This document shows positions 700-38,240 of a stretch of DNA of 64,000 bases, one piece after another. The notes beneath the pieces are model-generated. The model saw nothing but the letters and a program-made list of their open reading frames with translations. It was not told the DNA's origin and did no database searches. This stretch comes from an uncultured Dehalococcoidales bacterium (lineage in GTDB: Bacteria > Chloroflexota > Dehalococcoidia > Dehalococcoidales > UBA2162). The position numbers were made by a program, and so were the translations under genes. Positions within the stretch are counted from its first letter, which is position 1. Each line of letters starts with the position of its first letter. The stretch lies in assembly GCA_964463875.1 (NCBI GenBank), contig CAYXEG010000001.1:13714-77713 (forward strand). Reading direction: 5' to 3'.

Positions 700-1662
700 A
701 TGCGAGCATATCTCATTCGTCGTATCCTGCTTATCATTCCTACACTCGTACTTCTGACCGTCATTGTTTTTCTCATCATTCGTTTAATACCGGGAGATGT
801 TATCGATATGATGGTCGCCGAGATTAATACTGAAGGATTAATGACCTATGAGGAAGCTCGTGAAATGATTCGCGACCGACTCGGTCTTGATACCCCGCTC
901 CTTGAACAGTACTGGAACTGGGTCACCGGAGTATTCCGTGGTGACCTGGGTATATCAATGAGGAGCGGGCAATCTGTCACTGAAGAATTTCTCGAAAAAG
1001 TACCCGTTTCACTCGAACTAGGCATTCTTACCATGATTATCGGTCTGATGATAGCGTTACCGCTTGGTATATTTTCGGCTGTCCGTCAGGACTCACCGGC
1101 AGACTACACCGGCCGGACATTCGCCGTATTGATGTTATCCTTACCCAATTTCTGGCTTATGACTATGGTAATCGTCTTTCCGGCGATATGGTGGGATTGG
1201 ATGATTGAACTGGAGTACATTCCCTTCACTGAAGACCCTGCAGGGAATCTTATCCAGTTTCTGCCCCCGGCGTTTCTCATGGGAGCAGCCTTCTCCGGTG
1301 GTTTAATGAGGTTTATACGCACAATGATGCTGGAAGTACTTCGGCAGGACTACATACGTACCGCCTGGTCGAAAGGTCTTTCCGAACGAACGGTTATTTC
1401 ACGTCATGCCATCAGAAATACCTTGATACCAATGGTTACCATTGTCGGCATGGGGTTACCGGGTTTGATTGGCGGGTCTGTTATAACCGAGCAGATATTC
1501 AATCTTCCCGGGATAGGACGATGGTTGTTCGAAGCTGTTAATCAGCGGGACTATACAATTATCAGCGGAATGAATTTGATAATGGCAATAGCCGTCCTGT
1601 TGTGCAACCTGGCAGTTGATATCACCTACGCGTGGCTCGACCCCAGGGTGAAGTATCAATAA
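700..1662 (+). CDS. ABC transporter permease, DppB/OppB type
   Basis: 320 aa and multi-TM. N-terminus MRAYLIRRILLIIPTLVLLTVIVF and C-terminal LAVDITYAWLDPRVKY are typical of the BPD_transp_1 / OppB family. Purine-rich SD lies before the ATG. Confidence 0.9.
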   Translation: MRAYLIRRILLIIPTLVLLTVIVFLIIRLIPGDVIDMMVAEINTEGLMTYEEAREMIRDRLGLDTPLLEQYWNWVTGVFRGDLGISMRSGQSVTEEFLEKVPVSLELGILTMIIGLMIALPLGIFSAVRQDSPADYTGRTFAVLMLSLPNFWLMTMVIVFPAIWWDWMIELEYIPFTEDPAGNLIQFLPPAFLMGAAFSGGLMRFIRTMMLEVLRQDYIRTAWSKGLSERTVISRHAIRNTLIPMVTIVGMGLPGLIGGSVITEQIFNLPGIGRWLFEAVNQRDYTIISGMNLIMAIAVLLCNLAVDITYAWLDPRVKYQ

Positions 1663-1676
1663 TAAAGGAGAAAGCA

Positions 1677-2681
1677 ATGCAAAGAAGTCCGCAAGCTAAC
1701 GATGCGGTTGGAAAACAGAAGAAGCATCGCCCTTTCCTCATCGATTTATTTATCAGGCTGGTTAAAGAGAAGCCTCTGGGGACTGTGGGACTTTTTTTTG
1801 TTATCTGCCTCTTATTCGCCGGTATTTTTGCTGACTGGCTGGCACCCTACCATTACATGTACCAGGATTTGGACCATATTCTCGAACCTCCCTCAGCGAA
1901 GTTCCTGCTGGGAACAGATAACCTCGGACGGTGCCTTCTCAGTCGTATCATATATGGCGCCCGTATCTCGATGATTGTCGGTTTGAGTGTTCCCGCCATC
2001 TCGTCAATCATGCAAATATTCATCGGAGGCGTTGCCGGCTATGTCGGTGGAAAATGGGATTTAATCGTGATGCGCTTTGTCGATACCATGATGTGCTTTC
2101 CCACACTTGTCATCATGCTGACAGTGGTTGCTATTATCGGTCCGGGACTGATGCAACTTATTTTACTGCTGGGGATTCTGGGTGGACTGGGCGGCTCCAA
2201 CCGGGCGACGCGCAGCTATGTAATCAATATCCGGGAAAATATCTATGTGGAGGCAGCCACGGCGATAGGAGCATCGAGATTTCACATCATGTTAAAGCAT
2301 ATTGTGCCCAATATCCTGCCTTTGATAATCGTCGGCTTCACAATGGGTATGGGCGGCGCTATATTGGCGGAATCTTCGTTAAGCTTCCTCGGTTTTGGTA
2401 TTCCACCGCCGTATCCGAGCTGGGGTGGCATGCTGAGCGGTAACGCCCGGCGTTATATGTTCAGCGCACCCTGGTTGGCTATCTGGCCCGGCTTGGCATT
2501 GGCAGTCGTTGTCTGGGGCATGAACATGTTCGGTGATGGTTTACGGGATATCATTGACCCCAGGCTGCGGGGCGGGCTGGGAAGTTATCGACTTAACCCC
2601 AAGAAGCTGGAAAAAATCCTGAAAAAGGGGAAAGCAAATGAAGATGTCCCGAAAGTTGAGGTAGAAAACGTACAATCGTAA
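1677..2681 (+). CDS. ABC transporter permease, DppC/OppC type
   Basis: The ATG at 1677 is preceded by AAGGAG (1667-1672). Contains LGTDNLGRCLLSRIIYGARIS and a C-terminal GDGLRDIIDPRL motif. The track's upstream GTG (1632) overlaps the preceding gene and lacks an SD. Confidence 0.9.
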   Translation: MQRSPQANDAVGKQKKHRPFLIDLFIRLVKEKPLGTVGLFFVICLLFAGIFADWLAPYHYMYQDLDHILEPPSAKFLLGTDNLGRCLLSRIIYGARISMIVGLSVPAISSIMQIFIGGVAGYVGGKWDLIVMRFVDTMMCFPTLVIMLTVVAIIGPGLMQLILLLGILGGLGGSNRATRSYVINIRENIYVEAATAIGASRFHIMLKHIVPNILPLIIVGFTMGMGGAILAESSLSFLGFGIPPPYPSWGGMLSGNARRYMFSAPWLAIWPGLALAVVVWGMNMFGDGLRDIIDPRLRGGLGSYRLNPKKLEKILKKGKANEDVPKVEVENVQS

Positions 2682-2916
2682 TTTGAAAAGACACAACACA
2701 CCGTAATCGCTGATGACTTCAGGTACATTATCCGGGTCAGAACACCTGAGGCGGCTCGTGATAATGTGATAATGCAGAAGACTGGATACTGAGCTTAAAA
2801 TAACGGAGATATTCGTGAACGCGCTATACTGTAGAGTGAGCTTTTACAAGTCTGTCTGGGATAATCCGGTAACATCAGTGATTGAGTAAATATGAAATCT
2901 AAGGAGTCAGTACATT

Positions 2917-4644
2917 ATGTCAGAAAAAATCACCTGCATTAATCCGACAGGTATTTCGGAACCGGTCGATACTTTCCCGTTAGCCACAAGGCTGGACACT
3001 CTGGACGGAAAAACGATACACATCAGTATCACCGGAGAACCGGATATCACCCTGCCTCTGGAGAAAAAACTCAGAGCCAATTATCCGAATGTGAACTGGA
3101 CTCAGAAAAAGTCATACACGCCTACTCCGGTCTACCTTTCCGAGGAAGAGATGAAGACGACCGATGCCGTGATACTGGCGGTATGCTGGTGAAGCGGCGC
3201 CGTATGGGGGCAGTTGCCCTACATTACAAAACTCGAAAAGGCAGGGATACCAACGGTAATAGTCGATCTCGAAGACCAGCATCAAATGGTGAAACAGACA
3301 GCTTTACGGTATGGCGTACCCGAAGTGCGTTTTCTTGCGGCTTCACGCACGGTTCACGGCGAACTGGATTGTGACGCCTTTATCGAACCGATGCTTGATA
3401 TGCTGGTAAAACCGCTCACTGAAAAAGAAAAAGAAAGAGGCCGCTGGACCCCATCACCTTCAGAAAGAATAATCTTTGAGGGTTCACACGATGATGCTGA
3501 GGAGTTTTTTCACCAGAGAGAATGGGTTGGTCATCCGGTAAAAGCATGGATATCGAAATATACCGATGGCTTGCCGGTGAGAATACCGACGGAAGAACGA
3601 GTCGCTGAGATGCTGAAAGGTACCAGCCATAAACCTGATGAGCTTATCGTTCATCAAAAGAACGGTAGAGGTTTTAAGAAAGGTGACCCGGTTCAATTTC
3701 AGCCAATGGGATGGACAGCAACGGTTGAGAAAGTGGCTGCTTGTGCTGTTATGGCAGGATGCAAGCCGGAATATCTGCCGGCGGTCCTTGCTATCGCTGA
3801 GTCAGGTTCATTTATCGGCAGCACCCACACCTTCGGTCACTGGCTCTGTGTCAGTGGGCCGTATGCTAAAGAAGTTGGTATGAACAGCGGTTGCGGCATG
3901 CTGGGTCCCGGCAACGATGCTAATTGTACCATTGGACGCGCTTATGAAATAATCGCCCGTAATATTGGCGGAGCTATTCCTGGGGTGAACCGGATGACGA
4001 GTATCGGCAGCCCGTTCGAGGGAAGTCGGTGCTGCGCAGAAAACGCGGAAGGTCTGCCGCCAGGGTGGGAAGGGTTGAATGAAGAAGCCGGGTACTCTAA
4101 AGATGAAAGTGTTATGCTGGTGATTCCGCATGTCAACGATGGTATCCGTGGTGTCCAGTTTTCACCCGGCGGTTACCGGGCATTCCAGAAAAGCGGTCAC
4201 GGGGGTATTGCCCGAAAACTGGGAGTCAAAGGAATTCCCGGTCCTCATAACTGGCTGGAGTATCTGATAGATGAATTCTGGGCGGGCAGAGAGGGCGCTA
4301 AAACCATCATCATGGTGCCTGAAATGGCGCAGCACCTCTATGAATATGGTTTTAAATCCAAGGATGAAGTCTATGAATGGCTGTATAAGAAGAGTTTCAT
4401 GCCGTTAGGGAAATACCGGCACTTTTCATGGGTAGACCTCGGTACGAACGGCTGGCTCGGTAAAGAGCCGATTTCAGGAAAGCCCTGGAAAGAGCTTTCG
4501 GATGATTATCTGGTTCCGGCAGCCGAAAGCCCTTACGCCTTCTGTATCATTGTTGGCGGAGGCGACGAAGAACTGAGCCACCAGTTAAGTTCTCATCTTC
4601 ATCTTGGCATCGATCCCTTTTACAGCATTGATGCCTGGCGTTAA
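2917..4644 (+). CDS. Candidate selenoprotein of unknown function (91 aa + Sec + 483 aa if UGA 3190 is read through); otherwise two separate hypothetical genes 2917..3192 and 3214..4644
   Basis: Both ORFs share one frame and are separated by a single TGA. The downstream ORF has only a TTG start. The local motif is DAVILAV-C-W-U-S-G. A hairpin lies downstream at SECIS-like spacing. AAGGAG SD precedes the ATG at 2917. Confidence 0.5.
3190..3192 (+). other. In-frame UGA, candidate selenocysteine codon
   Basis: tgc tgg TGA agc ggc gcc gta tgg ggg cag ttg. There are no other stops between the two ORFs. Confidence 0.5.
3203..3223 (+). promoter_or_regulatory. Candidate bacterial SECIS stem-loop
   Basis: GGGGC (3207-3211) pairs with GCCCU (3216-3220) around an AGUU loop. 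The stem is extendable with bulges (U3205-A3221, U3203-A3223). The loop G-U sits 24-25 nt from the U of UGA. Confidence 0.4.
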
Positions 4645-4666
4645 TGTGATTTTTTGTCGCTAAAAT

Positions 4667-4696
4667 ACAGGGATCCGGCAGGTACCGGATCCCTGT
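4667..4696 (+). terminator. Rho-independent-type terminator after 2917..4644
   Basis: ACAGGGATCCGG (4667-4678), loop, CCGGATCCCTGT (4685-4696). Perfect 12-bp stem followed by GACTTTTCG. Confidence 0.7.
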
Positions 4697-5276
4697 GACT
4701 TTTCGTATCCCCTTTTCAGAATGAATGGCATGATAGCACCTACCTCGATTACCTGTTACTCCGGTTATCATTAACGGAATTTGAAGCTAACCCAACTTCC
4801 GCAGTCTTGAGGCTAAGAGGCAGTTCCTTCGAGCGTAATGTTTACACTACATTTTTACAGATTTTCATCCTCTTGGGAAGGTGTAACCCCAGCATTTGCA
4901 GGAGCACTGCCTGAGGTTTTGTGGGCTGAGCGATGCAGCGCTTCCGAATGATGGTCGTGTATCTGGTCGGCAGAGCGATATCCACGGCTTTTATCTGAGC
5001 AATCTCATCGAATACCTTCCGGGGTTCATTACCGAGACCTGCCCTTTTACACATCTGACCGGGCATCTTCCGCAGGACGTATGCCGGATACAGAGCCGGG
5101 AGAAGTAGCGGAAATGGATTTCGGACATCTGGGGATGGTAGGGGATGATCTTCGGAGAACGGATGTTTGACAGCTCTCACCGGGGTCGAAACTGTGGCAG
5201 GCACAGAAAGTGGTACGGCTGGGAGAACGATACACACCGGCACGGCTCGATACCGCTTTTTATGCAATCCGGTCTC

Positions 5277-5305
5277 TTGACATTGCGGGATGTAACATGT
5301 AATAT
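5277..5305 (+). promoter_or_regulatory. sigma70-type promoter for 5407 gene
   Basis: TTGACA (5277-5282), 17-nt spacer, TAATAT (5300-5305). Confidence 0.5.
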
Positions 5306-5310
5306 ATGCA

Positions 5311-5359
5311 ATCATATAGGAAATCATATAAGATTCCGTAAAAAATAAGCATATATGAT
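5311..5359. promoter_or_regulatory. Candidate operator: repeated ATCATAT / ATATGAT half-sites just downstream of the -10
   Basis: ATCATAT at 5311-5317 and 5323-5329. The inverted copy ATATGAT is at 5353-5359. The same half-site recurs at 19304-19338 and 23191-23218. Confidence 0.4.
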
Positions 5360-5406: not shown

Positions 5407-6075
5407 ATGGCGAGTGACAAGTTTCCCGAAGGATGGATAGTTGTCGACCACGTCATCCCCGGAGTCACGGAAGAGATGATTGACTGGTGGTGGGTCAACA
5501 TGGAGAAGGGGTACGAATTGTGGTGCCCTGACGAACACAAGGGCTTCATCTGGGAAGTCAAGCCTCCTCTCGGCGGGCATATCGGAGCCGTTCAGATTGC
5601 TAAAGAGAGCATCGATTTCGGACCGGTCAGAGACCTTCGTATCGAATGGGTGGACCCGAACATCGGAACTCAGGAACAAAAAGATTTCTGGACCTACAGC
5701 CATCTGCTCGCTGCCGGCAGGCCGGCAACCGAGCCTGGCGGCATTGGGTTTGTCAATCTCTCTCATCAGTGGGAAGCAATTCCCGGGGGATGCAAAATGA
5801 GGTCCTGTATGCACGGCTTCCCCGGGGGACGACCGCCGGGACCCCCTCCGGGAGTACGTATGCCCCAACCTCCGCCCCAGGCAGCAGGGCAACATCCGAG
5901 CGGAAAGTCGCCGACCGGAGGCGGCTGGCATTCCCATAACATAGCTGAAGTAAGTACCTTCACGGCGTTTCTGCCGGCTCTCTGGGGAATTTGGCAGGCT
6001 GTACCTGATCCGACGATAAACCGGCAGGCTTCTCTGAAGATTAAAAAGGAAGGCTCGAAAATTATCTATATCTAA
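5407..6075 (+). CDS. Conserved hypothetical protein, tentatively DAPG/phloretin-hydrolase (PhlG)-family-like, with Pro/Gly-rich insert; paralogue of 23303..23998
   Basis: AAAGGAGGG SD. IPGVTEEMIDWWWVNMEKGYELWCPDEHKGF resembles, from memory, the PhlG-family ...MxDWWF...LWHPxDH block. The family assignment is unverified. The protein is shorter than PhlG. Confidence 0.45.
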   Translation: MASDKFPEGWIVVDHVIPGVTEEMIDWWWVNMEKGYELWCPDEHKGFIWEVKPPLGGHIGAVQIAKESIDFGPVRDLRIEWVDPNIGTQEQKDFWTYSHLLAAGRPATEPGGIGFVNLSHQWEAIPGGCKMRSCMHGFPGGRPPGPPPGVRMPQPPPQAAGQHPSGKSPTGGGWHSHNIAEVSTFTAFLPALWGIWQAVPDPTINRQASLKIKKEGSKIIYI

Positions 6076-6354
6076 TCAGCGCTACGGTAATCTTACAGCT
6101 GAAAGGGGGGTTGACTATAGCACGTACCGCAAAGAGATGAACATGACCACCTGTACCGTGATACCCTTCAATACCACTCGAGCAAAACTGAAAAGAAACG
6201 TCTTTTACTTCCGTGGAGACTAAACCCGAGAAAGACGGCGAAACCCGGCTCTGGCGGGTAATTCTGAAGCAAGACGAAGGAGAAACGATACTTTTAAACG
6301 AGCCCATACCGATAGAGAAACACCCGTAAAACCTTGAAAAACAGGAAGGGGAAT

Positions 6355-8166
6355 ATGAAAAAAAAGATTATCTATATTCTGGTAAGCTGCATCATGGTTC
6401 TATCGTCGCTGGTGGCAGCATCGTGTGAAAAGGAAGAGGTAGCGAAAGAGGAGGAAGAGGAAGGAAAGGTTGTCATAACCGATAAAACGTCACCGACTGA
6501 GGTAACAGAAGAAAAGAAAGAGGAAGCCAAGGTGTCGGATGTTCCGCAGTACGGTGGAACGGTAACCATCACAACCACTCAGGATATCCAAGGTTACGAT
6601 CATGCCAATTTCTCAAGAGGCTTTCTCAATAACGTGTACCTGGTCAATGACACAATGGGTGCCCCTGATTGGAGCAGAGGTTCAGCCGGCACCGGGGAAA
6701 TCGATTGGGCCAGTCCGAGTCAGAAGCGCATTGATTTCACTATCGGCGCCCTGGCGGAGAGCTTCGAAATCATCCCTCCGGGGACAATCATTTTTAATGT
6801 TCGCCAGGGGGTACACTACGCACTCACCGATACCGAAGCCAGCAAACTGGTGGGCGGACGCGAAATGACAGCCGAAGACGTTGCGTTTTCTCTGGACAGG
6901 CATATTCATGAACCGATGTCTTATTTAGCTTTTACTGATCCTACCATGCCGAAAAATACAACGGTAACGCAAACAGGTCCGTGGACCGTGCAGATAGACA
7001 CCGGTCAATTCAACCTGGACCCGCTATGGTTGATGCTTCCCGACCGCGAGATATGGCCGAAGGAACTCATCGAAAAGTATGGTACTATAAGCGAGTGGTA
7101 CCAACAGGTGGGTAATGGCCCGTTCATCATGACAGATAGTGTTGTCGGCAGTTCCGCCACTTTCGAAAGGAACCCGAACTACTGGATGACGGACCCAGTC
7201 GGTTCGGGCAAAGGCAACCAGTTGCCTTACTTTGACCGTGTTCAAATGCTAATCATTCCTGATGCCTCAAGTAGTCAGGCAGGTTTCCGTACAGGCAGAA
7301 TAGATCAACTAGGTGCCCAGAGCAACGACGCCGCAAAAACAATGATACAGACCGCGCCTCATGTCAAGTATACCAAATACCTGCAGGGGCCAAATTACAT
7401 TTCGATGAGACTTGATATCCCCGAACTGCCACACACGCAAAAAGAGGTACGCCAGGCGCTGATGATGGCGATTGATTACGAAGCAATCGTCAGAGACTGG
7501 TACAATGGCGAGGCAGAGATACTTGCCTGGCCGCTGGCATATTCCAAGGGGTATGCCAACGCCTATATGCCGCTGGAGGAAATGCCTCAAGCGGTGAAGG
7601 ATATCTATACCTATAACCCGGTAAAAGCAAAACAAATGATTTCGGACGCCGGCTATCCGAATGGCTTCAAGACTATGGTAACCTGTACATCAGATGCCGT
7701 CGATTTTCTCTCCATAATCGTAGATATGTGGGAAGATATTGACGTGGAATTGAAGCTCGATATCGTCGATTTTGGTCCTTACTACAACTACACGGCGTCC
7801 CGGAAATACCCGGAAATGCTTTACGGTTTCTACGTTCAGCCGGGACCCTACGCCCAGTTACTCCCCTTCAGAATCGATAATACGTTCAATCGAAGCTGGG
7901 TAAAAGATGCTACAGTCGATGCTGCCTACGAAGAGATTCTCAAGTACAACCTCATTGACCAGGCAAAAGTCGACCAAATACACCGGGAGTTGATGCCGTA
8001 CGTGCTGGAGCAGGCCTATTATATCACGGTACCCGGCCCCTATCTGTTCAACTTCTGGCAACCCTGGCTGAAGAACTATTACGGTGAGGTTCAAGTCGGT
8101 TACCAGCCTTACTGGGTACGCTTCTCATGGATAGACCAGAACCTCAAGAGGTCGCTTGGTTATTAA
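6355..8166 (+). CDS. Family-5 ABC substrate-binding lipoprotein (Glu-rich linker)
   Basis: The ATG at 6355 follows GGAAGGGG. Signal peptide plus lipobox LVAAS-C. Strong similarity to the 26162 paralogue (WSRGSAGTGEIDW..., WQPWLKNYYGE). Confidence 0.9.
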   Translation: MKKKIIYILVSCIMVLSSLVAASCEKEEVAKEEEEEGKVVITDKTSPTEVTEEKKEEAKVSDVPQYGGTVTITTTQDIQGYDHANFSRGFLNNVYLVNDTMGAPDWSRGSAGTGEIDWASPSQKRIDFTIGALAESFEIIPPGTIIFNVRQGVHYALTDTEASKLVGGREMTAEDVAFSLDRHIHEPMSYLAFTDPTMPKNTTVTQTGPWTVQIDTGQFNLDPLWLMLPDREIWPKELIEKYGTISEWYQQVGNGPFIMTDSVVGSSATFERNPNYWMTDPVGSGKGNQLPYFDRVQMLIIPDASSSQAGFRTGRIDQLGAQSNDAAKTMIQTAPHVKYTKYLQGPNYISMRLDIPELPHTQKEVRQALMMAIDYEAIVRDWYNGEAEILAWPLAYSKGYANAYMPLEEMPQAVKDIYTYNPVKAKQMISDAGYPNGFKTMVTCTSDAVDFLSIIVDMWEDIDVELKLDIVDFGPYYNYTASRKYPEMLYGFYVQPGPYAQLLPFRIDNTFNRSWVKDATVDAAYEEILKYNLIDQAKVDQIHRELMPYVLEQAYYITVPGPYLFNFWQPWLKNYYGEVQVGYQPYWVRFSWIDQNLKRSLGY

Positions 8167-8423: not shown

Positions 8424-9188
8424 ATGTTGAGCTTATTTGATTTGCGTGGTAAAACCGCTGTTGTCACCGGAGGAGCGGGAGGAATCGGCAAGGCGCTGGC
8501 TCTCGGCCTGGCGGAGGCCGGTGCTGATGTTGTCATTACCAGCCGGGGCATCGGTAAACTCAAGGAAGTAGAAGCGGAAATAAAAGCCACTGGAAGGAAA
8601 GCCCTGGCGATTTCCACGGACGTGACCGACGAAAAATCGGTTGCGGAGATGGTGGATACGGTGAAGAAAGCGTTTCCCCGCATCGATATCCTGGTGAACG
8701 GAGCGGGCGTGGCGATACGAAAACCGGCAGATACGTTTCCTATCGATGAATGGCAGCAGGTAATGGACGTCAATGTCCGGGGAACATTCCTGTGCTGCCA
8801 GGCAATCGGCAGATTGATGATTCAGCAGAAAGAGGGCAAAATCATCAATATTTCTTCGGTGAGAGGCCGCTACGGCCTGCCGGTAGGGTATGCGGCATAC
8901 TGTCCCAGCAAGGGGGCGGTTGATACGCTGACGCGCACCCTGGCGTGCGAATGGGCGAAACACAATGTACTGGTTAACGCCATAGCGCCGACGGTTGTTG
9001 AGACGGAACTGACGAAGGAACTGCTGGCCGACGTCGAATACGCAAAAACCATGAAAGCCCGTATCCCGATGGGGCGATGGGCTGTCACCGACGACCTGGT
9101 GGGGCCGTGCGTATTCTTCGCCTCGGGCGCCTCGAACTTTATCACCGGACAGGTTCTCTATATCGATGGCGGGGTCACCACCTGGTAG
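8424..9188 (+). CDS. Short-chain dehydrogenase/reductase (classical SDR)
   Basis: TGGAGGIGKA (TGxxxGxG), NISS, and Y-CPS-K (YxxxK). 254 aa. Confidence 0.9.
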   Translation: MLSLFDLRGKTAVVTGGAGGIGKALALGLAEAGADVVITSRGIGKLKEVEAEIKATGRKALAISTDVTDEKSVAEMVDTVKKAFPRIDILVNGAGVAIRKPADTFPIDEWQQVMDVNVRGTFLCCQAIGRLMIQQKEGKIINISSVRGRYGLPVGYAAYCPSKGAVDTLTRTLACEWAKHNVLVNAIAPTVVETELTKELLADVEYAKTMKARIPMGRWAVTDDLVGPCVFFASGASNFITGQVLYIDGGVTTW

Positions 9189-9243
9189 AAGCAGAATCGT
9201 CGAAACTTGAACAACAAATAGTGGAGAAGTAAAGGAGTTATCG

Positions 9244-9582
9244 ATGAAGAAAGTGAAGCTCTCGGATGTCAAGCCGTACGCGGCTGCCGGACATTTTAAC
9301 ATGACCGCAATGCGGCTTCAGGGAAAAGAGGAGACCGGGATTCAGAAATTCTGGATGGGATTATCGTATTTTCTTCCCGGTGGAGGGGCCGGTTGGGCGT
9401 ATGAGGATTCACCCACGGAGAAAGTGTACCTTGTCCTCGAAGGCGAACTGACGGTCAAAAGTAAAACCGAAGAAGTGACGCTGGGCCCGATGGACTCGCT
9501 GTATCTTGCCCCGAATGAGGGAAGAGAAATTATCAACAAGACCAACAAGCCGGTGACCATGGTCGTCGTCGTCACCAGTTAG
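9244..9582 (+). CDS. Cupin-fold protein
   Basis: 112 aa with AAAGGAG SD. PGGGAGWAYEDSPTEKVYLVLEGEL...LYLAPNEGREIIN follows the cupin two-motif layout. The usual His ligands of motif 1 are not evident. Confidence 0.65.
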   Translation: MKKVKLSDVKPYAAAGHFNMTAMRLQGKEETGIQKFWMGLSYFLPGGGAGWAYEDSPTEKVYLVLEGELTVKSKTEEVTLGPMDSLYLAPNEGREIINKTNKPVTMVVVVTS

Positions 9583-9656
9583 GAAATAATTACCCGCAGG
9601 CAAACAAGCGGACTTTTCATTAAAAACATAGTAATAGAAACAGGAGGAAATCAGTA

Positions 9657-10595
9657 ATGGGGAAAAAAGTATTTGTTGACCTTACGCATCCTTTCGGAGC
9701 AGAAATTCCACGCTGGCCGTATTTCGACAAGCCGATAATCGATAATGCGCATACGATGGCCAAAGGCGGTGTTCTGACGCAGAAGATTACCTGCACCATG
9801 CATACCGGGACTCACTGCGACGCTCCCCGGCATGTTATGGAAATCGAATTCGACGGCAAGAGAGCGCGGTATACCCACGAAATGCCGGTCGACGCCTATA
9901 CCGGCGAAGCAGTCTGCCTGCCAATCGAGATTGAACGCTGGGGGCTTATCATGCCGAAACACCTCGAAGCCGCCTGTGAAAAAGTCGGTATCAAGCCGAG
10001 CGAACTGGAAGGCATGGTCCTCTGCCTCAATACCGGCATGCACCGGAAATTCGACGATTCGAAAGAGTACTATCACTATTCCTGCGGTACCGGTATCGAC
10101 GCCGGCAGATGGTTTGTCGAGAAAAAGGTAAAATGCGTGGCGATGGATATGCAGGCGCTGGACCACCCGCTCCATACTGCCATGGGTAATAACGGCATGA
10201 CCCGCATGAACCTGATTGGCGCTTCCGGCTATCCTATCACCGAAGAATACACGCAGCAGTTCGGCGAAGAGGCTTATGCCGAGTTTGATAAGTTTACCTA
10301 TATCAAGGTACATGGTAAAGAAGCCTATGACAAGAAATTCGGCGATTTGGAAGCAATCGGCTGCTGGGGCACCTGGGAGCCCTGCCACAAGATGATGCTT
10401 GGGCATGGTATTGTCGGTGTTGAAAACCTCGGCGGCAACCTTGACAAGGTTACCGGCAAACGGTTCAGGTTTTACTGCTTCCCGCTCCGCTGGTACCTGG
10501 GCGATGGCTCGATGGCCCGGTGCGTCGCGGAAATCGACGAAGACAACTTGAATAACGTTCCTGACAGAACCTATACTTATGGCGGTGTTATCTAA
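9657..10595 (+). CDS. Cyclase-family (kynurenine-formamidase-like, PF04199-type) metal hydrolase
   Basis: MHTGTHCDAPRH matches the HxGTHxDxPxH family signature. AGGAGG SD. Confidence 0.8.
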   Translation: MGKKVFVDLTHPFGAEIPRWPYFDKPIIDNAHTMAKGGVLTQKITCTMHTGTHCDAPRHVMEIEFDGKRARYTHEMPVDAYTGEAVCLPIEIERWGLIMPKHLEAACEKVGIKPSELEGMVLCLNTGMHRKFDDSKEYYHYSCGTGIDAGRWFVEKKVKCVAMDMQALDHPLHTAMGNNGMTRMNLIGASGYPITEEYTQQFGEEAYAEFDKFTYIKVHGKEAYDKKFGDLEAIGCWGTWEPCHKMMLGHGIVGVENLGGNLDKVTGKRFRFYCFPLRWYLGDGSMARCVAEIDEDNLNNVPDRTYTYGGVI

Positions 10596-10681
10596 TATAC
10601 ATGTGCAGTAAATACGGTACTGCATTTCATACCCGGCAGGGTCAGGTAAAAAACGGGTAAATATGGTTGGCAGGTGAGAGA

Positions 10682-12052
10682 ATGAAAGACGGATATGTCA
10701 CCGAACAGGCTCAGGATGTAAAGATACTCACGGAAGCTGAGGTGGTGGTGGTAGGCGGGGGGCCGGGAGGCCATTCGGCGGCCATCGCTGCCGCGAGGAA
10801 CGGCGTAAAGACAGTTCTGGTCGAGAGGTACGGCCATCTCGGCGGAATGGCAACCGGCGGCATCGTTATCCAGATACCTCACATGAGCGACGGCGGCAGC
10901 GAACAGCAGATTGCCGGCTTGACACAGGAATGGATTGACCGGCTCGACTCCATCGGAGGGGTCCTTGTCCCGCGGCGCAGCCAGATAGGCTCAGCCGATG
11001 AAAAGCTGATTTCCTACTGGCGGCGATTCATGGGAAACGTCAACCGGGGAAGGATTGAATATACTGCCTGGGTCGACCCGGAACTCCTGAAATGCGTCCT
11101 GAACGATATGGTCGAGGAAGCCGGTGTCAAACTGCTTCTTCATTCCTGGGGTGTCAGGTCGATAGTCGAAGGCAACACGGTCAAAGGAGTGGTTTTCGAA
11201 AGCAAGTCCGGCCGGCAGGCCGTGACGGGCAAAGTAATTATCGACGGCACGGGGGACGGTGACCTGCTGCCCTCGGCCGGGGCGGCCTGGGAAGGCGGTT
11301 TCGACCCGACATCGAGAAGCTCGATGCTGGCGCTCGTATTCAGAATCGGGAACTGCGACTACCAGAAGTATTGTGATTTCCGGGAAACAAACCCCGAGAA
11401 ATCCCAGGAACTTTCGAAGGCGATGACTGATTTGGTCGGGACGAGGCTTGTCCCGCTTCCTTCACCCCGCAACGATGTGATGTGGGTTAATAACTGGATT
11501 CCGAATCTCGATAACCTGAACGTCGAGCACCTGACCGAGCTGGAAGTGAGCATGCGGAGGATGATGCGAAAGGGACATGACTTCCTGAAGAAGAACATCC
11601 CGGGCTTCGAAAACAGCTTTATCCTCGATACTGCCTCGCAGACCGGCACGCGCGGGGGAAGGCGCGTTATGGGAGAGGTCAGAATCACTCACGACGATTT
11701 GAGAAACGCCACGAAGTACGAAGATACTATCGCTGTATTCCCGAAAATGGGTCCGCCGAACGAGGAAACCGGCGGTAAATATACTTTTATACCCTACCGG
11801 TGCGTAGTGCCGGAAAAGACGGAGGGGCTGCTTGTTGCCGGGCGGAGTTTCTCGTCCGACGGGGCGGCTAACAACATGGCAAACCTGATTCCCCACTGCA
11901 TCGCAATAGGTCAGGCGGCCGGTACCGCCGCAGCGCTCTCGGTAAAGGAAGGAATACAACCCAGGAAGGTGGATTACCGTACCTTGCAGAAGGCACTGCT
12001 GAAGCAGAATGTACCGCTTCCGGGCGTGGATTTAGCTGAAGCCAGGGTGTAA
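10682..12052 (+). CDS. FAD-dependent oxidoreductase (PF12831-like); paralogue of 17887..19155
   Basis: VVVVGGGPGGHSAAIAAARNG...ERYGHLGGMATGG dinucleotide fold. C-terminal GRSFSSDGAANNMANLIPHCIAIGQAAG. The ATG at 10682 follows GGTGAGAG; the track start at 10667 is TTG. Confidence 0.8.
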   Translation: MKDGYVTEQAQDVKILTEAEVVVVGGGPGGHSAAIAAARNGVKTVLVERYGHLGGMATGGIVIQIPHMSDGGSEQQIAGLTQEWIDRLDSIGGVLVPRRSQIGSADEKLISYWRRFMGNVNRGRIEYTAWVDPELLKCVLNDMVEEAGVKLLLHSWGVRSIVEGNTVKGVVFESKSGRQAVTGKVIIDGTGDGDLLPSAGAAWEGGFDPTSRSSMLALVFRIGNCDYQKYCDFRETNPEKSQELSKAMTDLVGTRLVPLPSPRNDVMWVNNWIPNLDNLNVEHLTELEVSMRRMMRKGHDFLKKNIPGFENSFILDTASQTGTRGGRRVMGEVRITHDDLRNATKYEDTIAVFPKMGPPNEETGGKYTFIPYRCVVPEKTEGLLVAGRSFSSDGAANNMANLIPHCIAIGQAAGTAAALSVKEGIQPRKVDYRTLQKALLKQNVPLPGVDLAEARV

Positions 12053-12397: not shown

Positions 12398-13609
12398 TTA
12401 CAGAATGACTCCTTCTTCTTTCAATTTGGCAATATCTTCCCAGCTGTACCCCAGTTCCAGCAGAATTTCTTCGTTATGCTGGCCCAGTTCAGGGCAGGTG
12501 GTTCGCAATGTCGCAGGGGTATCGCTAAACTCTACCGGGGTTGTGATTAACCTGATTTTTCCGGCGCTCGGGTGTTCAACCTCGACAAAGAAATCATTGG
12601 CCAGGGCTTGCGGGTCGTTGATAACCTCCATCGGAGTTTGAACTTTTCCATAGATGCAGTTATTTTCTTTGAACCGTTTTTCCCATTCGGCCATCGTTCT
12701 TTCCGACAGGCATTTTTCAATGATTGCTATCAACTCTTCGCAATGTTCTTTACGGGCATCAAGGTCGCAGAATCTCGAATCACGCGCCAGTTCCGGCCTG
12801 TCTATAGCCCGGCAGAAACCCGGCCAGGCGCCTTCCGATTGAAGCATGGCCAGCCAGAACCACCGGCCGTCAGCGGTCTGGTAGCTGTTCCACACCGGGT
12901 TCTGGGCTTTTTTACGGTCATGTTTGACCGGTACAGTCCCGCCAAGAGCGCCTTGAATATCCACAGCCAGGCTCCAGACAGCCGTATGGTAGAGCGACAC
13001 TTCGATGTTTTGTCCCTGCCCGGTTTTTTGCCGTTGCAGCAGGGCAGCACAGACAGCGCTGACGAGGTGCGAACCCGCCATGCTGTCGATGATACCGACT
13101 CGCTGGGGAGCGGGAGGCGTGCCCGGTTCTCCGATAAGGTGCATCATCCCCGAACGTGCCCAGCCGGCGGTAAAATCGTATCCCCGCTCCTCACTGTCAG
13201 GGCCTTTAGCGCCATAGCCGCTGATGAAGGCATAGATAAGTTTCGGATTAATCCGGTGCAGGGTATCATAATCGATGTGCATCTTTTTTACCGAGCTGCG
13301 CTTGTAGTTGCACATGAACACATCCGCATTTCGAATAAGATTGTGAATAATTTCCTGCCCCGCTTCGTGGGAAAGGTCCACTGCCAGTGACCTCTTGTTC
13401 CGATTGAGGACCTGCATTACCCAGTTAATTTCACCCGTTGCAACTCCCTGGGCTCTTTTCAGCCCACGGTGCATCTCGCCGGTCAGCGGTTCGAGTTTTA
13501 TCACGTCAGCACCCCAGTCAGCCATGGTCGAACTGGCGGCGGGTATCGCGACAATCTGTCCCATCGATACTACTTTAAGACCTTCAAGGACGCCTGACAT
13601 AAATTTCAT
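12398..13609 (-). CDS. Family III CoA-transferase (CaiB/BaiF/Frc type)
   Basis: LEGLKVVSMGQIVAIPAASSTMADWGADVIKLEP plus DFFVEVEHPSAGKIRLITTPVEFS. ATGA overlap with the upstream stop. An alternative ATG at 13600 has better SD spacing. Confidence 0.85.
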   Translation of the reverse strand: MKFMSGVLEGLKVVSMGQIVAIPAASSTMADWGADVIKLEPLTGEMHRGLKRAQGVATGEINWVMQVLNRNKRSLAVDLSHEAGQEIIHNLIRNADVFMCNYKRSSVKKMHIDYDTLHRINPKLIYAFISGYGAKGPDSEERGYDFTAGWARSGMMHLIGEPGTPPAPQRVGIIDSMAGSHLVSAVCAALLQRQKTGQGQNIEVSLYHTAVWSLAVDIQGALGGTVPVKHDRKKAQNPVWNSYQTADGRWFWLAMLQSEGAWPGFCRAIDRPELARDSRFCDLDARKEHCEELIAIIEKCLSERTMAEWEKRFKENNCIYGKVQTPMEVINDPQALANDFFVEVEHPSAGKIRLITTPVEFSDTPATLRTTCPELGQHNEEILLELGYSWEDIAKLKEEGVIL

Positions 13610-14388
13610 ACTCCTTTGGCTGATTCTTCAACGGCGATGATAGCTGCGCCGAACGCATTGACAATCAGGGGCCGGGGAGGTACCAGCAAGGTCACCCCCA
13701 GACTGTCCTCCAGTTTCTTTATAAGCCCGATATTCAACGCCCCGCCACCGCTGACAGCGCACTCCTCTTCGAGGCCGATTCTCTCAACCAGAGAGGTAAT
13801 TTTATCGGCCAAAGCTTTATGGATTCCGTTCAGGATATCTTCCCTCCGAAAACCTTCAGCTACCCGTGAGACCGCTTCCGATTCACCAAAAACAGCGCAC
13901 CCGGTGGTGAAGGCGATGGGATTATCGGAATCAAGCGACATGGGACCGATATCGTCCAGCTCTATCTGGAGAACGTTGGCAACAATCTCCAGGAAGCTTC
14001 CGCTCCCGGCGGCGCACTTCTCGCTGGTGAGAAAACCGGTCACCTGGCCGGCGTCGTTTATTCTGATTACCTGGGTGTACTGTGACTGGACATCGATGAT
14101 TGTCCTCACCGAAGGAAATAAATTATGTATTCCCCTGGCACAGCAGCGAATACCGGTGATATGCCGGCTGCCCGGCTCAATATCATCGCTATGGCCGGTG
14201 GTGACCATGGTATCGATATCCTCTTCCGTCAGGTTTGTCTCTGCCAGCAGTTCTTCCTTGAGTTGCGCAGCGACTTTTCGATAGTTTATACCGGACTGAA
14301 GTATTCGATATGCCGAAACAGTCCCGTTCCGGGTGATGACACCTTTACTGGTGGATGAACCGATATCGATACCAATAATCCGGGCCAT
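13606..14388 (-). CDS. BcrAD/BadFG-type ATPase subunit (activase / BCR gamma- or alpha-like)
   Basis: MARIIGIDIGSSTSKG (ASKHA phosphate-1). EKCAAGSGSFLE and TTGCAVFGESE provide the Cys contexts for the bridging [4Fe-4S]. Confidence 0.85.
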   Translation of the reverse strand: MARIIGIDIGSSTSKGVITRNGTVSAYRILQSGINYRKVAAQLKEELLAETNLTEEDIDTMVTTGHSDDIEPGSRHITGIRCCARGIHNLFPSVRTIIDVQSQYTQVIRINDAGQVTGFLTSEKCAAGSGSFLEIVANVLQIELDDIGPMSLDSDNPIAFTTGCAVFGESEAVSRVAEGFRREDILNGIHKALADKITSLVERIGLEEECAVSGGGALNIGLIKKLEDSLGVTLLVPPRPLIVNAFGAAIIAVEESAKGV

Positions 14389-14398
14389 TTTCGCCTCT

Positions 14399-15247
14399 TC
14401 AGTTCGTGTAAAAACTGGCTTCTTCCAGCCGTCTCGGGATTTTTCGGACAGTCTTGCCCTGAGACAGTAATTTCAACGTTGCGTCTTTCGCCAGGAGGGC
14501 TGCCCCCAGGGCGCCGGTCAACAATGGCTCATCGGGCACGAAAACCCTGCATCCGAGGTTCTCTTCCAGAGCTTTGACGACCCCGATATTCTTCGCCACC
14601 CCTCCGGTAAACACCACATCAGGTTCCACGGAAAGCTTCTTCACCATTCTGGCAACACGGGCAGCAATGGCATCATGAAGCCCGGCAATGATATCTTCAA
14701 TCGGGACGCCTTTCGAGATACAGGTAATCACTTCCTGGCGGGCAAAGACCGTACAGGTATTATTGATGGGGACTTTGTTTTTCGATTTCATCGACAGAGG
14801 CCCCAAATCTTCAATTTTAATGCCAAGTGTGCCGGTGAAAACCTCCAGGAACCGGCCAGTTCCTGCGGCGCACCGGTCATTCATGGCGAAATCCAGCAGC
14901 TTTCCATCCCGGATTTTCATTCCCTTGGAATCCTGTCCACCGATATCGATAGCTAATTTAGCAGCAGGGAACTGACTCGTAATACCCCTCGTATGGCAGG
15001 TCAATTCGGTAATCTGGCGGTCGGCGAAGGGAACGTTTACCCTTCCGTAGCCGGTGGCTACCAGGCAGGTGATGTCGTCGATTGACAAGCCTGCCTGAAC
15101 CAGGGCTTTTTCCATGACCTTATTAGCCAGGCGCCGGTGCTCAGCGCCGGTGTGATGAATGACGCTGGCATGCAGCTTTTCCTGTTCATCGATAATCACG
15201 AGCTTGGTCATGGTCGAACCTGAATCTATTCCGGCGTAATAGTTAAT
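14399..15247 (-). CDS. Second, distinct BcrAD/BadFG-type ATPase subunit; probable non-canonical ATT start
   Basis: The first ATG (15211) would delete the essential GIDSGST phosphate-1 motif. That motif is encoded in-frame just upstream (NYYAGIDSGSTMTKL), after a TGA at 15265-15263. GGAG lies 8 nt before ATT 15247. Also has DRCAAGTGRFLE and NNTCTVFARQE. Confidence 0.75.
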   Translation of the reverse strand: MNYYAGIDSGSTMTKLVIIDEQEKLHASVIHHTGAEHRRLANKVMEKALVQAGLSIDDITCLVATGYGRVNVPFADRQITELTCHTRGITSQFPAAKLAIDIGGQDSKGMKIRDGKLLDFAMNDRCAAGTGRFLEVFTGTLGIKIEDLGPLSMKSKNKVPINNTCTVFARQEVITCISKGVPIEDIIAGLHDAIAARVARMVKKLSVEPDVVFTGGVAKNIGVVKALEENLGCRVFVPDEPLLTGALGAALLAKDATLKLLSQGKTVRKIPRRLEEASFYTN

Positions 15248-15286
15248 AGCCGCAACTCCTTTTCAGCCGAATGAACGAGACCCTGC

Positions 15287-16459
15287 CTAACCGATGATTT
15301 CGGTGAATGCCTGAACCCTTGTCATCAGCGGGCCGAGGGCGGATTTACTGTAATCGTGCTCGATGTAGATGGCCGGTAACTCTATGTACTCGAGGTAATC
15401 CTTTATCTGAGGAATCTCATACCCGTGGCTGTCGCAGTACCGTAAAGCGTGGAGAATAACTCCGTTCACATTCCAGTCTTCAGCGAAGTTTTTCAGATAA
15501 CCGAACCTGTTTTCAATATCAGCCTGGTAGTTTCCCGCCGAGCTTCCGGCGACTGAATCACGAAACGTCCGGGGACATTTGAGGTCTTCGAGGTAGTGGT
15601 ACGCCAGGCCGTCGAGCGGGTCATCCGTAACCGGGACATCGTCGAAGAACGCCCGGCTTCCGACGCACGTATCGTCCATGACTACGTGCGCGTCGAGGCT
15701 TTCAATCATTTCGATAAACGCCGTATTGTCCAGGACGGGGCCCCAGACAAGCAGCCGGGCCGATTTTTCCGGTATCCGGTTCTCGCGTTCCTGGATTTCG
15801 GCGATGATATCCCTTAACAGTAAGTTTCCTTCCTCGACCGGGAGGCTCATCAGGGCTATCATCACCTGAAGGATTTCCGTTCCTGATACGAGAGGCGGGT
15901 CCGGTTTTCTCAGGGCGTATAACTCACGGACCAGTCGCCGCTGCTCATTATGTTTCAGGACGGCTTCTTTCAAACTGTCCCGGGACATGTTCCTTCCGGT
16001 GAAGGACTCGAGCGATTTTTGAAATCCCTCTAGCAGTTCTTTCAGCCGTTCCCGTGAATTTTCCCGGTTGGTATGAGGGACATCGAGGAAATGGGAATAG
16101 GGAGTTTTAACAGCAACATCCCAGACGTGAGCTATCCTGGCGCCGACATCGCAGATATGGGCCATGACGACGCCGTCAAGAAAATCGTATCTGCCTTTGA
16201 TTCCCAGGTCGAGAATGCTGCGAAGGAAAGGGCAGACAATCGTTGGCATGTAATCGTCCGCGCCGGTAATCGGCTCGTCCATATCTCCGAAAATCCGGTA
16301 AGGAACCAGGTGCATCGCCGTCAGCATCTCAGTAACCGGGTAGATGCAAAGATAGCCAATCACCTGCCGGCCTTCCGCCTTCAGTTCTTTTATCCGGCGA
16401 GTCCGGTTGCGGTAAATATCCTGCGCTTTTTCGAGCCCTGCGACCGGTTTATTTACCAT
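15287..16459 (-). CDS. 2-hydroxyacyl-CoA dehydratase / benzoyl-CoA reductase B/C-family subunit (HgdB/BcrC/BzdN-like)
   Basis: 390 aa. VIGYLCIYPVTEMLTAMHLVPYRIFG...IVCPFLRSILD... is typical of the HGD-D family. It overlaps the upstream gene by 7 nt. Confidence 0.85.
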   Translation of the reverse strand: MVNKPVAGLEKAQDIYRNRTRRIKELKAEGRQVIGYLCIYPVTEMLTAMHLVPYRIFGDMDEPITGADDYMPTIVCPFLRSILDLGIKGRYDFLDGVVMAHICDVGARIAHVWDVAVKTPYSHFLDVPHTNRENSRERLKELLEGFQKSLESFTGRNMSRDSLKEAVLKHNEQRRLVRELYALRKPDPPLVSGTEILQVMIALMSLPVEEGNLLLRDIIAEIQERENRIPEKSARLLVWGPVLDNTAFIEMIESLDAHVVMDDTCVGSRAFFDDVPVTDDPLDGLAYHYLEDLKCPRTFRDSVAGSSAGNYQADIENRFGYLKNFAEDWNVNGVILHALRYCDSHGYEIPQIKDYLEYIELPAIYIEHDYSKSALGPLMTRVQAFTEIIG

Positions 16460-17832: not shown

Positions 17833-17886
17833 CTTTATTGCTCTATCCTTTGTTGACAGATTTTAATGGCAATTATAGCTATCGTT

Positions 17887-19357: not shown

Positions 19358-19626
19358 GTATTTTTTCCGGCTTTTTTCCCTCTGCTGACACTGAGTTCAA
19401 ACGGACAGGAAATGCCGGTAATGCAGGCGAGGGCAGTAAACCGGTGAACCCCGAAATTCCCGCAGAAGGAAATCAAATCAATAAGCAGGATATCGGTGAT
19501 TGTTAGCAGGAAACAAAGGAGGTGAACACTTATAGGGAGATATCACGGCTATTCCGGTAACCGGTAGCATCAATGAACCTGACGATTGAATTATTTCGGG
19601 TAGATGGTAAAGGAGAAAATAACACA

Positions 19627-23302: not shown

Positions 23303-23998
23303 ATGGAAGAAGGAAAATATCCGATAGGTTGGGCAGTTGTCGATCATGTCATTCCCGGCGTTACTCCGGAGATGATTGACTGGTGGTGGGTCAACATGGA
23401 AAAAGGGTACGAATTATGGTGCCCTGACGAACACAAAGGCTTCACCTGGGAAGTCAAACCTCCTCTCGGCGGGCATATCGGAGCCATACAGATTGCCAAA
23501 GAAAGCATCGATTATGGCCCGGTGATGGATCTTAGAATCGAGTGGGTCGACCCGAACCTGGGAACCCAGGAACAGAAGGATTTCTGGACATATGAACATC
23601 TCCTTACTGCCGGTGGAGGCCCTCCCGGAATGCCAAAGGGAGTAATGCTATCTCACCAGTGGGAAGCAATTCCGGGGGGATGTAAAATGCGTTCCTGCAT
23701 GCATGGTATGGCAGGTGGATCTGGACCACGGCCGCCACAGGGACCGCCTCCCGGAGCCAGGCAGGGTCCGCCTCCCGGTCCGCCTCCCGGTTTTGTGATG
23801 CCTCCTCATCCGAGCGGCAAGAAACCGACCGGTGGTGGGTGGAGCGCTCATAACGTTTCTGAAGCCAGTACATTTAAAAATTTCCTGCCGGCTCTCTGGG
23901 GAATCTGGCAGGCTGTTACTGACCCGGCAATCAATCGCCAGGCTTCTCTGAGGGTTAAGAAGGAAGGCTCCAAGATAATCTATATCGACCAGAGGTAA
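23303..23998 (+). CDS. Conserved hypothetical protein, tentatively DAPG/phloretin-hydrolase-family-like, with Pro/Gly-rich insert; paralogue of 5407..6075
   Basis: Long blocks are identical to 5407 at protein and DNA level (EMIDWWWVNMEKGYELWCPDEHKGF, PPLGGHIGA, SHQWEAIPGGCKMRSCMHG, FLPALWGIWQAV). Confidence 0.45.
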   Translation: MEEGKYPIGWAVVDHVIPGVTPEMIDWWWVNMEKGYELWCPDEHKGFTWEVKPPLGGHIGAIQIAKESIDYGPVMDLRIEWVDPNLGTQEQKDFWTYEHLLTAGGGPPGMPKGVMLSHQWEAIPGGCKMRSCMHGMAGGSGPRPPQGPPPGARQGPPPGPPPGFVMPPHPSGKKPTGGGWSAHNVSEASTFKNFLPALWGIWQAVTDPAINRQASLRVKKEGSKIIYIDQR

Positions 23999-32280: not shown

Positions 32281-32304
32281 CCGGTGAATACAGGGAGAGA
32301 GACT

Positions 32305-38236: not shown

Positions 38237-38240
38237 CGCA

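Follow-up and report, generated by a model that had tools for sequence, protein, structure and literature searches.

A UGA-containing gene of an uncultured Dehalococcoidales bacterium predicted to encode a fused selenoprotein of the UGSC family

Results

A Single UGA Within an Otherwise Open Frame

The DNA considered here is a 64-kb stretch from an uncultured Dehalococcoidales bacterium; "the window" hereafter means the whole of that stretch, and coordinates count from its first letter. Positions 2917-4644 of its forward strand hold a gene interrupted by one TGA, which we read as encoding a selenoprotein. The frame is open from ATG 2917 to the TGA at 3190-3192, runs on through 21 nt (SGAVWGQ) to a TTG at 3214, and then remains open as far as the TAA at 4642-4644. 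The first-pass annotation had described two open reading frames (ORFs), 2917-3192 and 3214-4644, lying in the same frame with one TGA and seven sense codons between them, and this was confirmed on the sequence. Read through, the complete gene would comprise 575 codons before its stop, with the UGA specifying selenocysteine (Sec) at residue 92. The 575-aa product would carry C90-W91-U92-S93-G94 in the context DAVILAVCW-U-SGAVWGQLPYITKLEKAGIP, and the peptide across the UGA would read TTDAVILAVCW-U-SGAVWGQLPYITK. This gene model draws on the frame itself, on the conservation of the TGA and on Cys-containing homologues that are single polypeptides, the latter two being described below.

A Shine-Dalgarno-like AAGGAG is seen at 2901-2906 (forward strand), 10 nt 5' of ATG 2917, and because it precedes this codon we favour ATG 2917 as the genuine start over TTG 3214 and ATG 3286. 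The last of these is the first in-frame ATG past the TGA, in agreement with the earlier remark that the downstream ORF has no ATG near its beginning. At the other end of the gene, 22 nt past the stop, lies a terminator-like stem-loop of the intrinsic type (4666-4706, forward strand), with 13 pairs in a hairpin at 4666-4697 and a T-rich tail after it. No signal peptide was found in the window protein. Judged from its sequence, the product is a cytoplasmic selenoprotein of 575 aa that is split in public annotation, where the UGA was taken as a stop. The corresponding NCBI product (P0001, 452 aa, 100% identical) begins at ATG 3286, so that 123 N-terminal residues are missing, and with them the Sec centre and half of the UGSC domain.

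TGA is the ordinary stop of 13 of the 59 long ORFs in the window, from which we conclude that the genetic code is standard. A search of the window for long open stretches separated by an in-frame TGA gave no second credible selenoprotein gene, the other cases being off-frame noise or adjacent genes, and no paralogues of the gene at 2917-4644 were found within the window.

Homologues Carry Sec or Cys at the UGA Position

The truncation of P0001 is shared by its closest relatives. A search with the read-through protein returned 3044 relatives, of which the best 120 all align only downstream of the TGA, over 79-83% of the query, and are truncated in the same way. The predicted N-termini of these downstream pieces vary (VWGQLPY..., MWRQLPY..., MPYIAK..., LPYITK...) and all fall within conserved sequence, which we attribute to gene callers missing a Sec codon and restarting beyond it. 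Homologues that are full-length single polypeptides (530-570 aa) do exist; they came from an exhaustive search of 1.84 billion representatives, made without a profile, for which the query was the post-UGA part of the window protein.

We fetched 80 related loci (L001-L080) from GTDB genomes and translated them in frame upstream of the match. An in-frame TGA flanked on both sides by conserved residues was present in 33 of the 34 loci with full-length matches, and an in-frame TGA was classified in at least 42 of the 80 loci. The loci that carry it include Dehalococcoidales, Acidobacteriota, Burkholderiales, Rhodospirillales, Verrucomicrobiia, Syntrophaceticus, Thermodesulfobacteriota and Desulfatiglandales. 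All 21 copies of the Dehalococcoidales type have the TGA, within a conserved protein context of W-U-[S/H]-G-A-[V/I]-W-x-Q-L-P (W-U-S-G-A in the window protein). The Sec motifs of other clades read GH-U-STC, GH-U-GGC, GL-U-STC or GD-U-GSC; these other clades of the fused family retain U-[GS]-[GST]-C (UxxC).

For column assignment the window codon was masked as X and aligned by MAFFT. The masked codon shares its column with the TGA of other clades and with the first Cys of P0209 and P0271-P0278 (GACGSC, including P0276), of P0230 (GDCGNC) and of P0166 (GSCGGM). The proposal that homologues would be single polypeptides with Cys or Sec aligned to position 92 is thus borne out, by these Cys homologues on the one hand and by the TGA-carrying loci on the other. 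The same column holds Ser in P0185 and P0177, and in many family members Ser, Gly, Ala or Met replaces Sec or Cys (APSNTST, GGTSG, DSAATT), as in L018 (approximately 3450-5269), P0158, P0172, P0177, P0185, P0207 and others.

Residue -2 to the Sec, which is Cys90 in the window protein, is Cys in 11, Ala in 5 and Val in 5 of the 21 clade copies. The Cys-Trp-Sec sequence emphasized in the first-pass annotation is therefore present in the window protein but is not a conserved motif, and CxU was ruled out as a redox motif because just 11 of the 21 copies have the Cys.

Five Dehalococcoidales loci hold second paralogous copies that adjoin the first (L001:5758, L002:2249, L004:4618, L005:6481 and L014:6816, the last on the reverse strand), each with the nucleotide pattern TGGTGA-N17-GCAGTTGCC. 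At least four copies are present in the metagenome-assembled genome (MAG) CAVTJN01, and the family is expanded in Dehalococcoidales, yet the window contains a single copy. Additionally, Sec forms from Acidobacteriota and Verrucomicrobiia (L017, L019, L020, L024-L027, L031, L035) have an N-terminus resembling a twin-arginine translocation (Tat) signal (MNRRKLLSLLGxSPALLAG), about 250 codons upstream of the match start, and these forms are probably exported.

A Conserved Hairpin Follows the UGA

Downstream of the UGA, within the coding sequence, lies a hairpin at 3204-3224 (forward strand), AUGGGGGC-AGUU-GCCCU(A)CAU, with its core at 3207-3220 (GGGGC-AGUU-GCCCU), its loop at 3212-3215 and a bulged A3221. 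Counting the U of the UGA as 1, the loop residues G3213 and U3214 are nt 24 and 25, and TTG 3214, the apparent start of the downstream ORF, sits within this loop. The core, the loop position and the likeness to fdhF-type geometry are as the first-pass annotation gave them, and the helix can be extended outward to 3204-3224.

Bacterial selenocysteine insertion sequence (SECIS) elements recruit SelB with Sec-tRNA(Sec) to the ribosome, and criteria of the bSECISearch type look for a G(U) in the apical loop approximately 16-37 nt after the UGA, a range that includes the loop described here. In the fdhF-type SECIS of E. coli the minimal upper stem-loop begins about 11 nt after the UGA and its loop carries G23/U24. 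The window stem-loop, with its apical G-U one position further on, starts 14 nt past the UGA codon, or 11 nt when the three extra base pairs are included. It differs from the fdhF element in its shorter stem (5 core pairs plus 3) and 4-nt AGUU loop, and an equivalent of the bulged U was not identified; several clades related to that of the window have a GGUC loop, and recruitment of SelB is predicted from sequence.

The evidence for selection on this hairpin comes from comparison. An alignment (A2) of 16 Dehalococcoidales-type copies, spanning TGA-3 to +57, was extended to 21 copies by five paralogues retrieved with the pattern TGGTGA-N17-GCAGTTGCC, a pattern that occurs once in the window as against 0 expected. 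GCAGTTGCC is invariant in all 21 copies, with Gln+7 encoded by CAG and Leu+8 by TTG in every one, whereas equally conserved residues nearby draw on 2-5 codons (Leu+11 uses five; Ala+3, Leu+14, Gly+18 and Pro+20 use four each). The pair between nt 19 and nt 30, that is, the first base of codon +6 and the third base of Pro+9, covaries (GC in 10 copies, AU in 9, CG and GU in 1 each) and is unpaired in none of the 21. For the 8-pair helix as a whole, 0 of 500 column shuffles matched the observed covariation score and every slid control was worse. Furthermore, 18 distant loci, unrelated in sequence here, nonetheless have a hairpin approximately 12-19 nt after the UGA with a GU-containing apical loop (GGUC, AGUGU, CGGUU, AGUUG and others). 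The expectation that the hairpin would be conserved thus held, through covariation and frozen synonymous sites in the 21 copies and through analogous hairpins at distance, and these results support its assignment as a putative bacterial SECIS-type element.

A Divergent UGSC Domain at the N-Terminus

Residues 1 to about 165 (2917-3411, forward strand) constitute a UGSC-family domain. The Pfam UGSC model PF24696 matches the read-through protein over aa 8-144 (nt 2938-3348), across the UGA, with 29.8 bits as against a gathering score of 25, which gives substance to the resemblance to UGSC (seleno)proteins that the first-pass annotation had suggested. The match to NF041046 is 25.3 bits, below that model's cut-off of 125, as compared to 136 bits for the fused relative P0230. 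The window motif is U-S-G-A rather than U-G-S-C, and its clade has no Cys at +3. Given the low NF041046 score and the absence of UxxC, we regard the window protein as a divergent UGSC member and not as an equivalog.

An AlphaFold2 (AF2) model of the Cys homologue P0209 (mean pLDDT 90, pTM 0.90) has an N-terminal domain folded as a beta-alpha-beta sandwich, in which the Cys/Sec position falls where a strand ends and a helix starts. Foldseek comparison of this modelled domain with the PDB gave only flavodoxin-like matches (the flavodoxin domain of flavodiiron protein, WrbA and lumazine synthase; E approximately 3e-4, TM approximately 0.5 to the target), and thioredoxin was absent from its top 50 matches. 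A strand-to-helix redox site of thioredoxin- or flavodoxin-like type had been predicted at the UGA; of the two, the flavodoxin-like type is the one that the model of P0209 favours.

A Large C-Terminal Domain and Its Alternative Fusion Partners

The remainder of the protein, aa 166-575 (3412-4641, forward strand), is a conserved domain without assigned function, in which the motifs TDGLPVxxPTEERV, VEKVAxxAVMAGCKPE, GPGNxANxTIGRA and SIDAWR are found; family-wide these read TDGLPxxPPTE, VEKVAxxAVMAGC, GPGNxANxxIGR and DxWR. The window gene joins a UGSC domain and this TDGLP/VMAGC/GPGNxAN/DxWR domain in one polypeptide, which is the fused architecture of the family. At 50% identity the C-domain is represented by 2911 cluster representatives. 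The first-pass annotation could not place it in any family, and neither could we: no Pfam or NCBIfam model covers it in the window protein, in 54 relatives or in the relatives with a thioredoxin-type fusion, and no PDB sequence matched a C-domain profile with E lower than 0.15. The AF2 model of the window C-domain has a pLDDT of 80.5 and a pTM of 0.86. Foldseek with two AF2 models against the PDB found no C-domain relative, the best match, a non-significant one, being an Fe-S fumarate hydratase (E = 0.34, TM 0.2). An invariant Cys/His cluster is absent from the domain.

The same C-domain is joined to a different N-terminal module in 25 loci, where a thioredoxin/redoxin-like CxxC module (KRDCPTC...TVPTL; PF08534 at 26.7 bits in L040) is followed about 60 aa on by RPG-C-GS. 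In these thioredoxin (Trx)-type fusions the N-module is encoded upstream of the match start (L038, L040, L044, L045, L049, L052-L054, L057-L065, L067, L068, L070, L072-L074, L077, L078 and L080; for example L040:3515-5100 and L053:2317-3756). In L054, L072 and L078 the Cys of RPG-C-GS is replaced by an in-frame TGA, and the resulting PG-U-GS seems to be a second Sec site of this C-domain family, one apparently not described before. Because the C-domain occurs with both the UGSC domain and the CxxC plus PG[C/U]GS module, it would appear to have recruited a thiol/selenol module twice.

Cys282, the Cys of VMAGC (codon 3760-3762, forward strand), is a candidate partner thiol of Sec92. It is retained in all 40 Sec forms in which the motif was found, in all 25 Trx-type fusions and in all 9 Cys forms, and gives way to Ala, Val or Gly solely where the N-domain has no Sec or Cys (8 of 35 forms), these being raw counts that ignore kinship.

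Genes Adjoining the Locus and Its Homologues

Directly upstream of the gene are two Dpp/Opp-type ATP-binding cassette (ABC) permease genes (700-2681, forward strand; Pfam BPD_transp_1 and OppC_N). Family-5 solute-binding protein (SBP5) genes, matched by Pfam SBP_bac_5, occur at 39-530 (the tail of a gene), 6334-8166, 19573-21369 and 26162-27991. Four SBP5 genes are therefore present in 28 kb as against one permease pair, and no ATPase genes were seen there. Genes resembling DAPG hydrolase at 5407-6075 and 23303-23998 are each followed by an SBP5 gene. An SBP5 gene is also directly upstream of the homologues in L007 and L015, and genes for TctC binding proteins adjoin proteobacterial homologues; besides the window, many loci have a solute-binding-protein gene as a neighbour of the homologue. 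We infer a functional tie between the gene at 2917-4644 and its adjacent transporter genes.

A gene for a thioredoxin reductase (TrxR)-like flavoprotein (approximately 305 aa, Pyr_redox_2, CAAC motif) lies near the fusion gene in four lineages (L081:10757-11680 on the reverse strand, L082:6038-6955, L023:2749-3636 and L028:5418-6215). In L023 and L028, a Rhodospirillales and a Chloroflexota locus, it is directly adjacent to Sec forms on the same strand, and in L081 and L082 (Ottowia and Variovorax) a TctC gene stands between it and the fusion gene. The conserved cluster of the cultured Ottowia thiooxydans and Variovorax comprises, in this order, MarR, the TrxR-like protein, TctC, the fusion gene, a PAS/HTH regulator, a class-V aminotransferase and RidA.

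The window region around the gene is rich in coenzyme A (CoA)-dependent catabolic genes. A cluster of the 2-hydroxyacyl-CoA dehydratase type at 12398-19155 (reverse strand) holds a CoA-transferase III, two BcrAD/BadFG activator ATPases, two HGD-D subunits and a flavin adenine dinucleotide-dependent oxidoreductase (PF12831), and a second PF12831 gene is found at 10667-12052. A beta-oxidation-like operon at 28119-38654 encodes an acyl-CoA synthetase, an enoyl-CoA hydratase and a second hydratase, two CoA-transferases III, two acyl-CoA dehydrogenases, an SCP-x-type thiolase and a ChsH2-like OB/zinc-ribbon protein. An aldehyde:ferredoxin oxidoreductase of the tungsten-enzyme family (57989-59746, reverse strand) fits an anaerobic source organism. 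Predicted long ORFs of the window without a Pfam match at the thresholds used are those at 4842-5327, 8433-9302, 9651-10625, 60299-60985 and 61528-62163 on the reverse strand and at 43628-44947 on the forward strand.

Discussion

One Gene or Two

We consider it very probable that 2917-4644 is one gene in which the UGA specifies Sec and is followed by a SECIS element, and the interpretation put forward in the first-pass annotation is supported. Several results nevertheless weigh against parts of this reading and of the function proposed below. Neither Sec-insertion genes nor a tRNA-Sec were found within the 64-kb window by a tRNA scan and by gene and domain annotation. Single-sequence RNAfold of 3185-3250 gave a fold no better than shuffles (z = -0.22), de novo RNAalifold on alignment A2 did not recover the named hairpin and returned a weak, different structure at -3.4 kcal/mol, and Rfam matched no SECIS or other family, either over the window at gathering thresholds or over 3150-3300 at E <= 10. 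No TrxR-like gene is present in the window, and neighbourhood clustering over the 80 loci revealed only weak conservation (CoA-transferase III, SBP5), with a naive ORF caller that is unreliable in GC-rich loci. Moreover, many members of the family carry Gly, Ser or Ala in place of the Sec, so that this redox centre is dispensable for the function of the C-domain or at any rate for its retention.

Of the RNA results, folding had been proposed earlier as a check and gave a divided answer, negative for the single sequence and positive for comparative covariation. Because z is -0.22, the hairpin is significant by comparison only, and with Rfam likewise silent the case for a SECIS rests on the comparative data. 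The Rfam result itself does not count against the finding, since SECIS elements of bacteria vary too much, and are too short, for a match to be expected. The alternative RNAalifold structure was dropped, as covariation is confined to the named hairpin.

That the locus instead holds two genes, a 91-aa protein ending at UGA 3190 and a separate protein of about 452-476 aa starting from TTG 3214 or ATG 3286, is how gene callers of all sources have split it, and UGA does serve as an ordinary stop for other ORFs of the window. We judge this highly improbable: the seven supposedly intergenic codons and their flanks are conserved as protein, one Pfam domain crosses the UGA, the Cys homologues are single polypeptides, and the second piece has neither a Shine-Dalgarno-like sequence nor a conserved start, its predicted start differing between homologues and TTG 3214 falling in the SECIS loop. 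A pseudogene or sequencing error, that is, a nonsense mutation of a former Cys codon, would require a single step from TGC or TGT. We give it practically no credence, as the TGA recurs in every related copy and in distant phyla while both halves remain conserved as protein and the downstream hairpin is kept. A further question is the identity of the inserted residue. Sec machinery was not seen in the 64-kb window and UGA is reassigned in some uncultured bacteria, so the codon might be read as Trp, Cys or Gly by a near-cognate or suppressor tRNA, or as part of genome-wide recoding. Against this, UGA ends 13 of the 59 long window ORFs, the site is position-specific and aligned with Cys in homologues, a SECIS-type hairpin with a G-U loop at the canonical distance is found in every clade, and UGSC is an established selenoprotein family (PMC2398784); non-Sec read-through is consequently very unlikely.

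Relation to Known Selenoproteins

With Sec at residue 92 taken as the preferred reading, the protein can be set beside known families. Zhang and Gladyshev (2008; PMC2398784) describe UGSC-containing proteins as a major aquatic selenoprotein family, with 255 Sec and 21 Cys sequences in the Global Ocean Sampling (GOS) data, suggest a thioredoxin fold for them, and note a "UGSC/Unknown_1" fusion in GOS reads (Fig. S1A). Unknown_1 of that paper is likely the C-domain of the window protein. NCBI and UniRef, for their part, already label 550-aa fused Cys forms as "UGSC family (seleno)protein", and given these two precedents the fusion, which the first-pass annotation thought would be informative, is not new. 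MAGs of Dehalococcoidia rank with the genomes richest in selenoproteins, at 46-49 such genes (PMC13326102).

The window protein resembles the UGSC family (PF24696, NF041046) in its homologous N-domain, in the placement of Sec in the U/C column of UGSC/CGSC and in the SECIS directly downstream. It differs in its motif, in the missing +3 Cys and in its low NF041046 score, and whereas classical UGSC proteins stand alone at about 150 aa, it adds a C-domain of 400 aa. The fused 530-570-aa proteins of Ottowia thiooxydans and Variovorax (P0276, P0272) have the same two domains, with 29-37% identity over the C-domain and a Cys aligned to the Sec. These are proteobacterial Cys forms (GACGSC) with TrxR-like and TctC genes nearby, in contrast to the Sec form, different motif and SBP5/ABC neighbours of the window. 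The Trx-type fusions found among L038-L080 have the same C-domain, including VMAGC, and also an N-terminal thiol/selenol module, which in their case is a CxxC thioredoxin fold plus PG[C/U]GS instead of a UGSC domain, with the Sec site, if any, in a different motif. By these comparisons the gene is an unannotated (split) member of a known family with a known architecture, belonging to a divergent, expanded Dehalococcoidales-type clade that has an unusual predicted Sec motif. Its novelty as a gene discovery is modest, and the remaining interest lies in the C-domain and in the redox relay that we propose for it.

The selenoproteins of glycine/sarcosine/betaine reductase and D-proline reductase (GrdA/GrdB, PrdB) are fed by thioredoxin reductase and thioredoxin, and offer a functional analogy by which the window protein may be hypothesized to be an anaerobe's Sec-dependent reductase of imported small molecules, TrxR-type genes being found near its relatives. 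Unlike them, it has no match to PF07355 or PF09338 at E <= 1, and no pyruvoyl or partner subunits were seen.

A Tentative Redox Mechanism

We propose that Sec92, at the strand end and helix start of a flavodoxin-like N-domain, would serve as redox-active nucleophile in a reductase that would bind its substrate in the C-domain of about 400 aa. The +3 Cys being lost in the W-U-[S/H]-G-A clade, the Sec would probably form a selenenylsulfide during its cycle, with either Cys282 or an external thiol as partner, and be re-reduced by a system of the thioredoxin reductase/thioredoxin type, and the substrate would probably be a small organic compound imported by the adjacent binding-protein-dependent transporter. 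A reductase of imported small molecules with TrxR-type recharge is suggested by the Trx-type fusions, the retention of the VMAGC Cys, the TrxR-like neighbours and the SBP genes. As a whole, this mechanism of Sec92 as nucleophile, Cys282 or an external thiol as partner and TrxR-type recharge is plausible, though we would stop short of calling it probable. An inter-domain selenenylsulfide between Sec92 and Cys282 is preferred because the clade lacks a Cys at +3 and a conserved Cys at -2; it is our best guess, tentatively held.

A different role for Sec92, as a metal or cofactor ligand held by the C-domain or as a non-redox catalytic nucleophile, would leave the assignment of Sec untouched. The same two missing Cys residues could be read this way, in formate dehydrogenases and [NiFeSe] hydrogenases Sec coordinates a metal, and the best C-domain Foldseek match, albeit non-significant, was to an Fe-S enzyme. 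The C-domain, however, has no invariant Cys/His cluster, the other module to which it is found fused is a thioredoxin-like one with a CxxC, TrxR-like genes are nearby in four lineages and other clades have kept UxxC, and we therefore consider this role rather unlikely. Returning to the redox mechanism, its broadest form would make the C-domain the catalytic module of an unrecognised and widespread family of small-molecule reductases (approximately 2900 clusters at 50% identity), with interchangeable Sec/Cys N-modules of UGSC or thioredoxin type, TrxR-like recharge and, in Dehalococcoidales, the Sec92-Cys282 selenenylsulfide. This generalization is speculative, and taken in its entirety we think it on balance doubtful.

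Implications

The immediate consequence of the split annotation is that the public record holds a 452-aa protein from which the Sec centre has been lost, and since the records are truncated, proteomic, structural or metabolic work on these Dehalococcoidia would make use of decapitated proteins. The DNA signature TGGTGA-N17-GCAGTTGCC retrieves the clade. UGSC proteins are among the most abundant selenoprotein families of aquatic metagenomes and their function is still unassigned; fusion to a large conserved domain, the existence of a thioredoxin-like alternative module and the TrxR-like and SBP neighbours together provide a testable reductase hypothesis for them. The C-domain is, in addition, a candidate for a fold without a solved representative. 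If the proposed mechanism is true, it would mean Sec-dependent reductive catabolism of imported organic compounds for anaerobes of the Dehalococcoidales clade.

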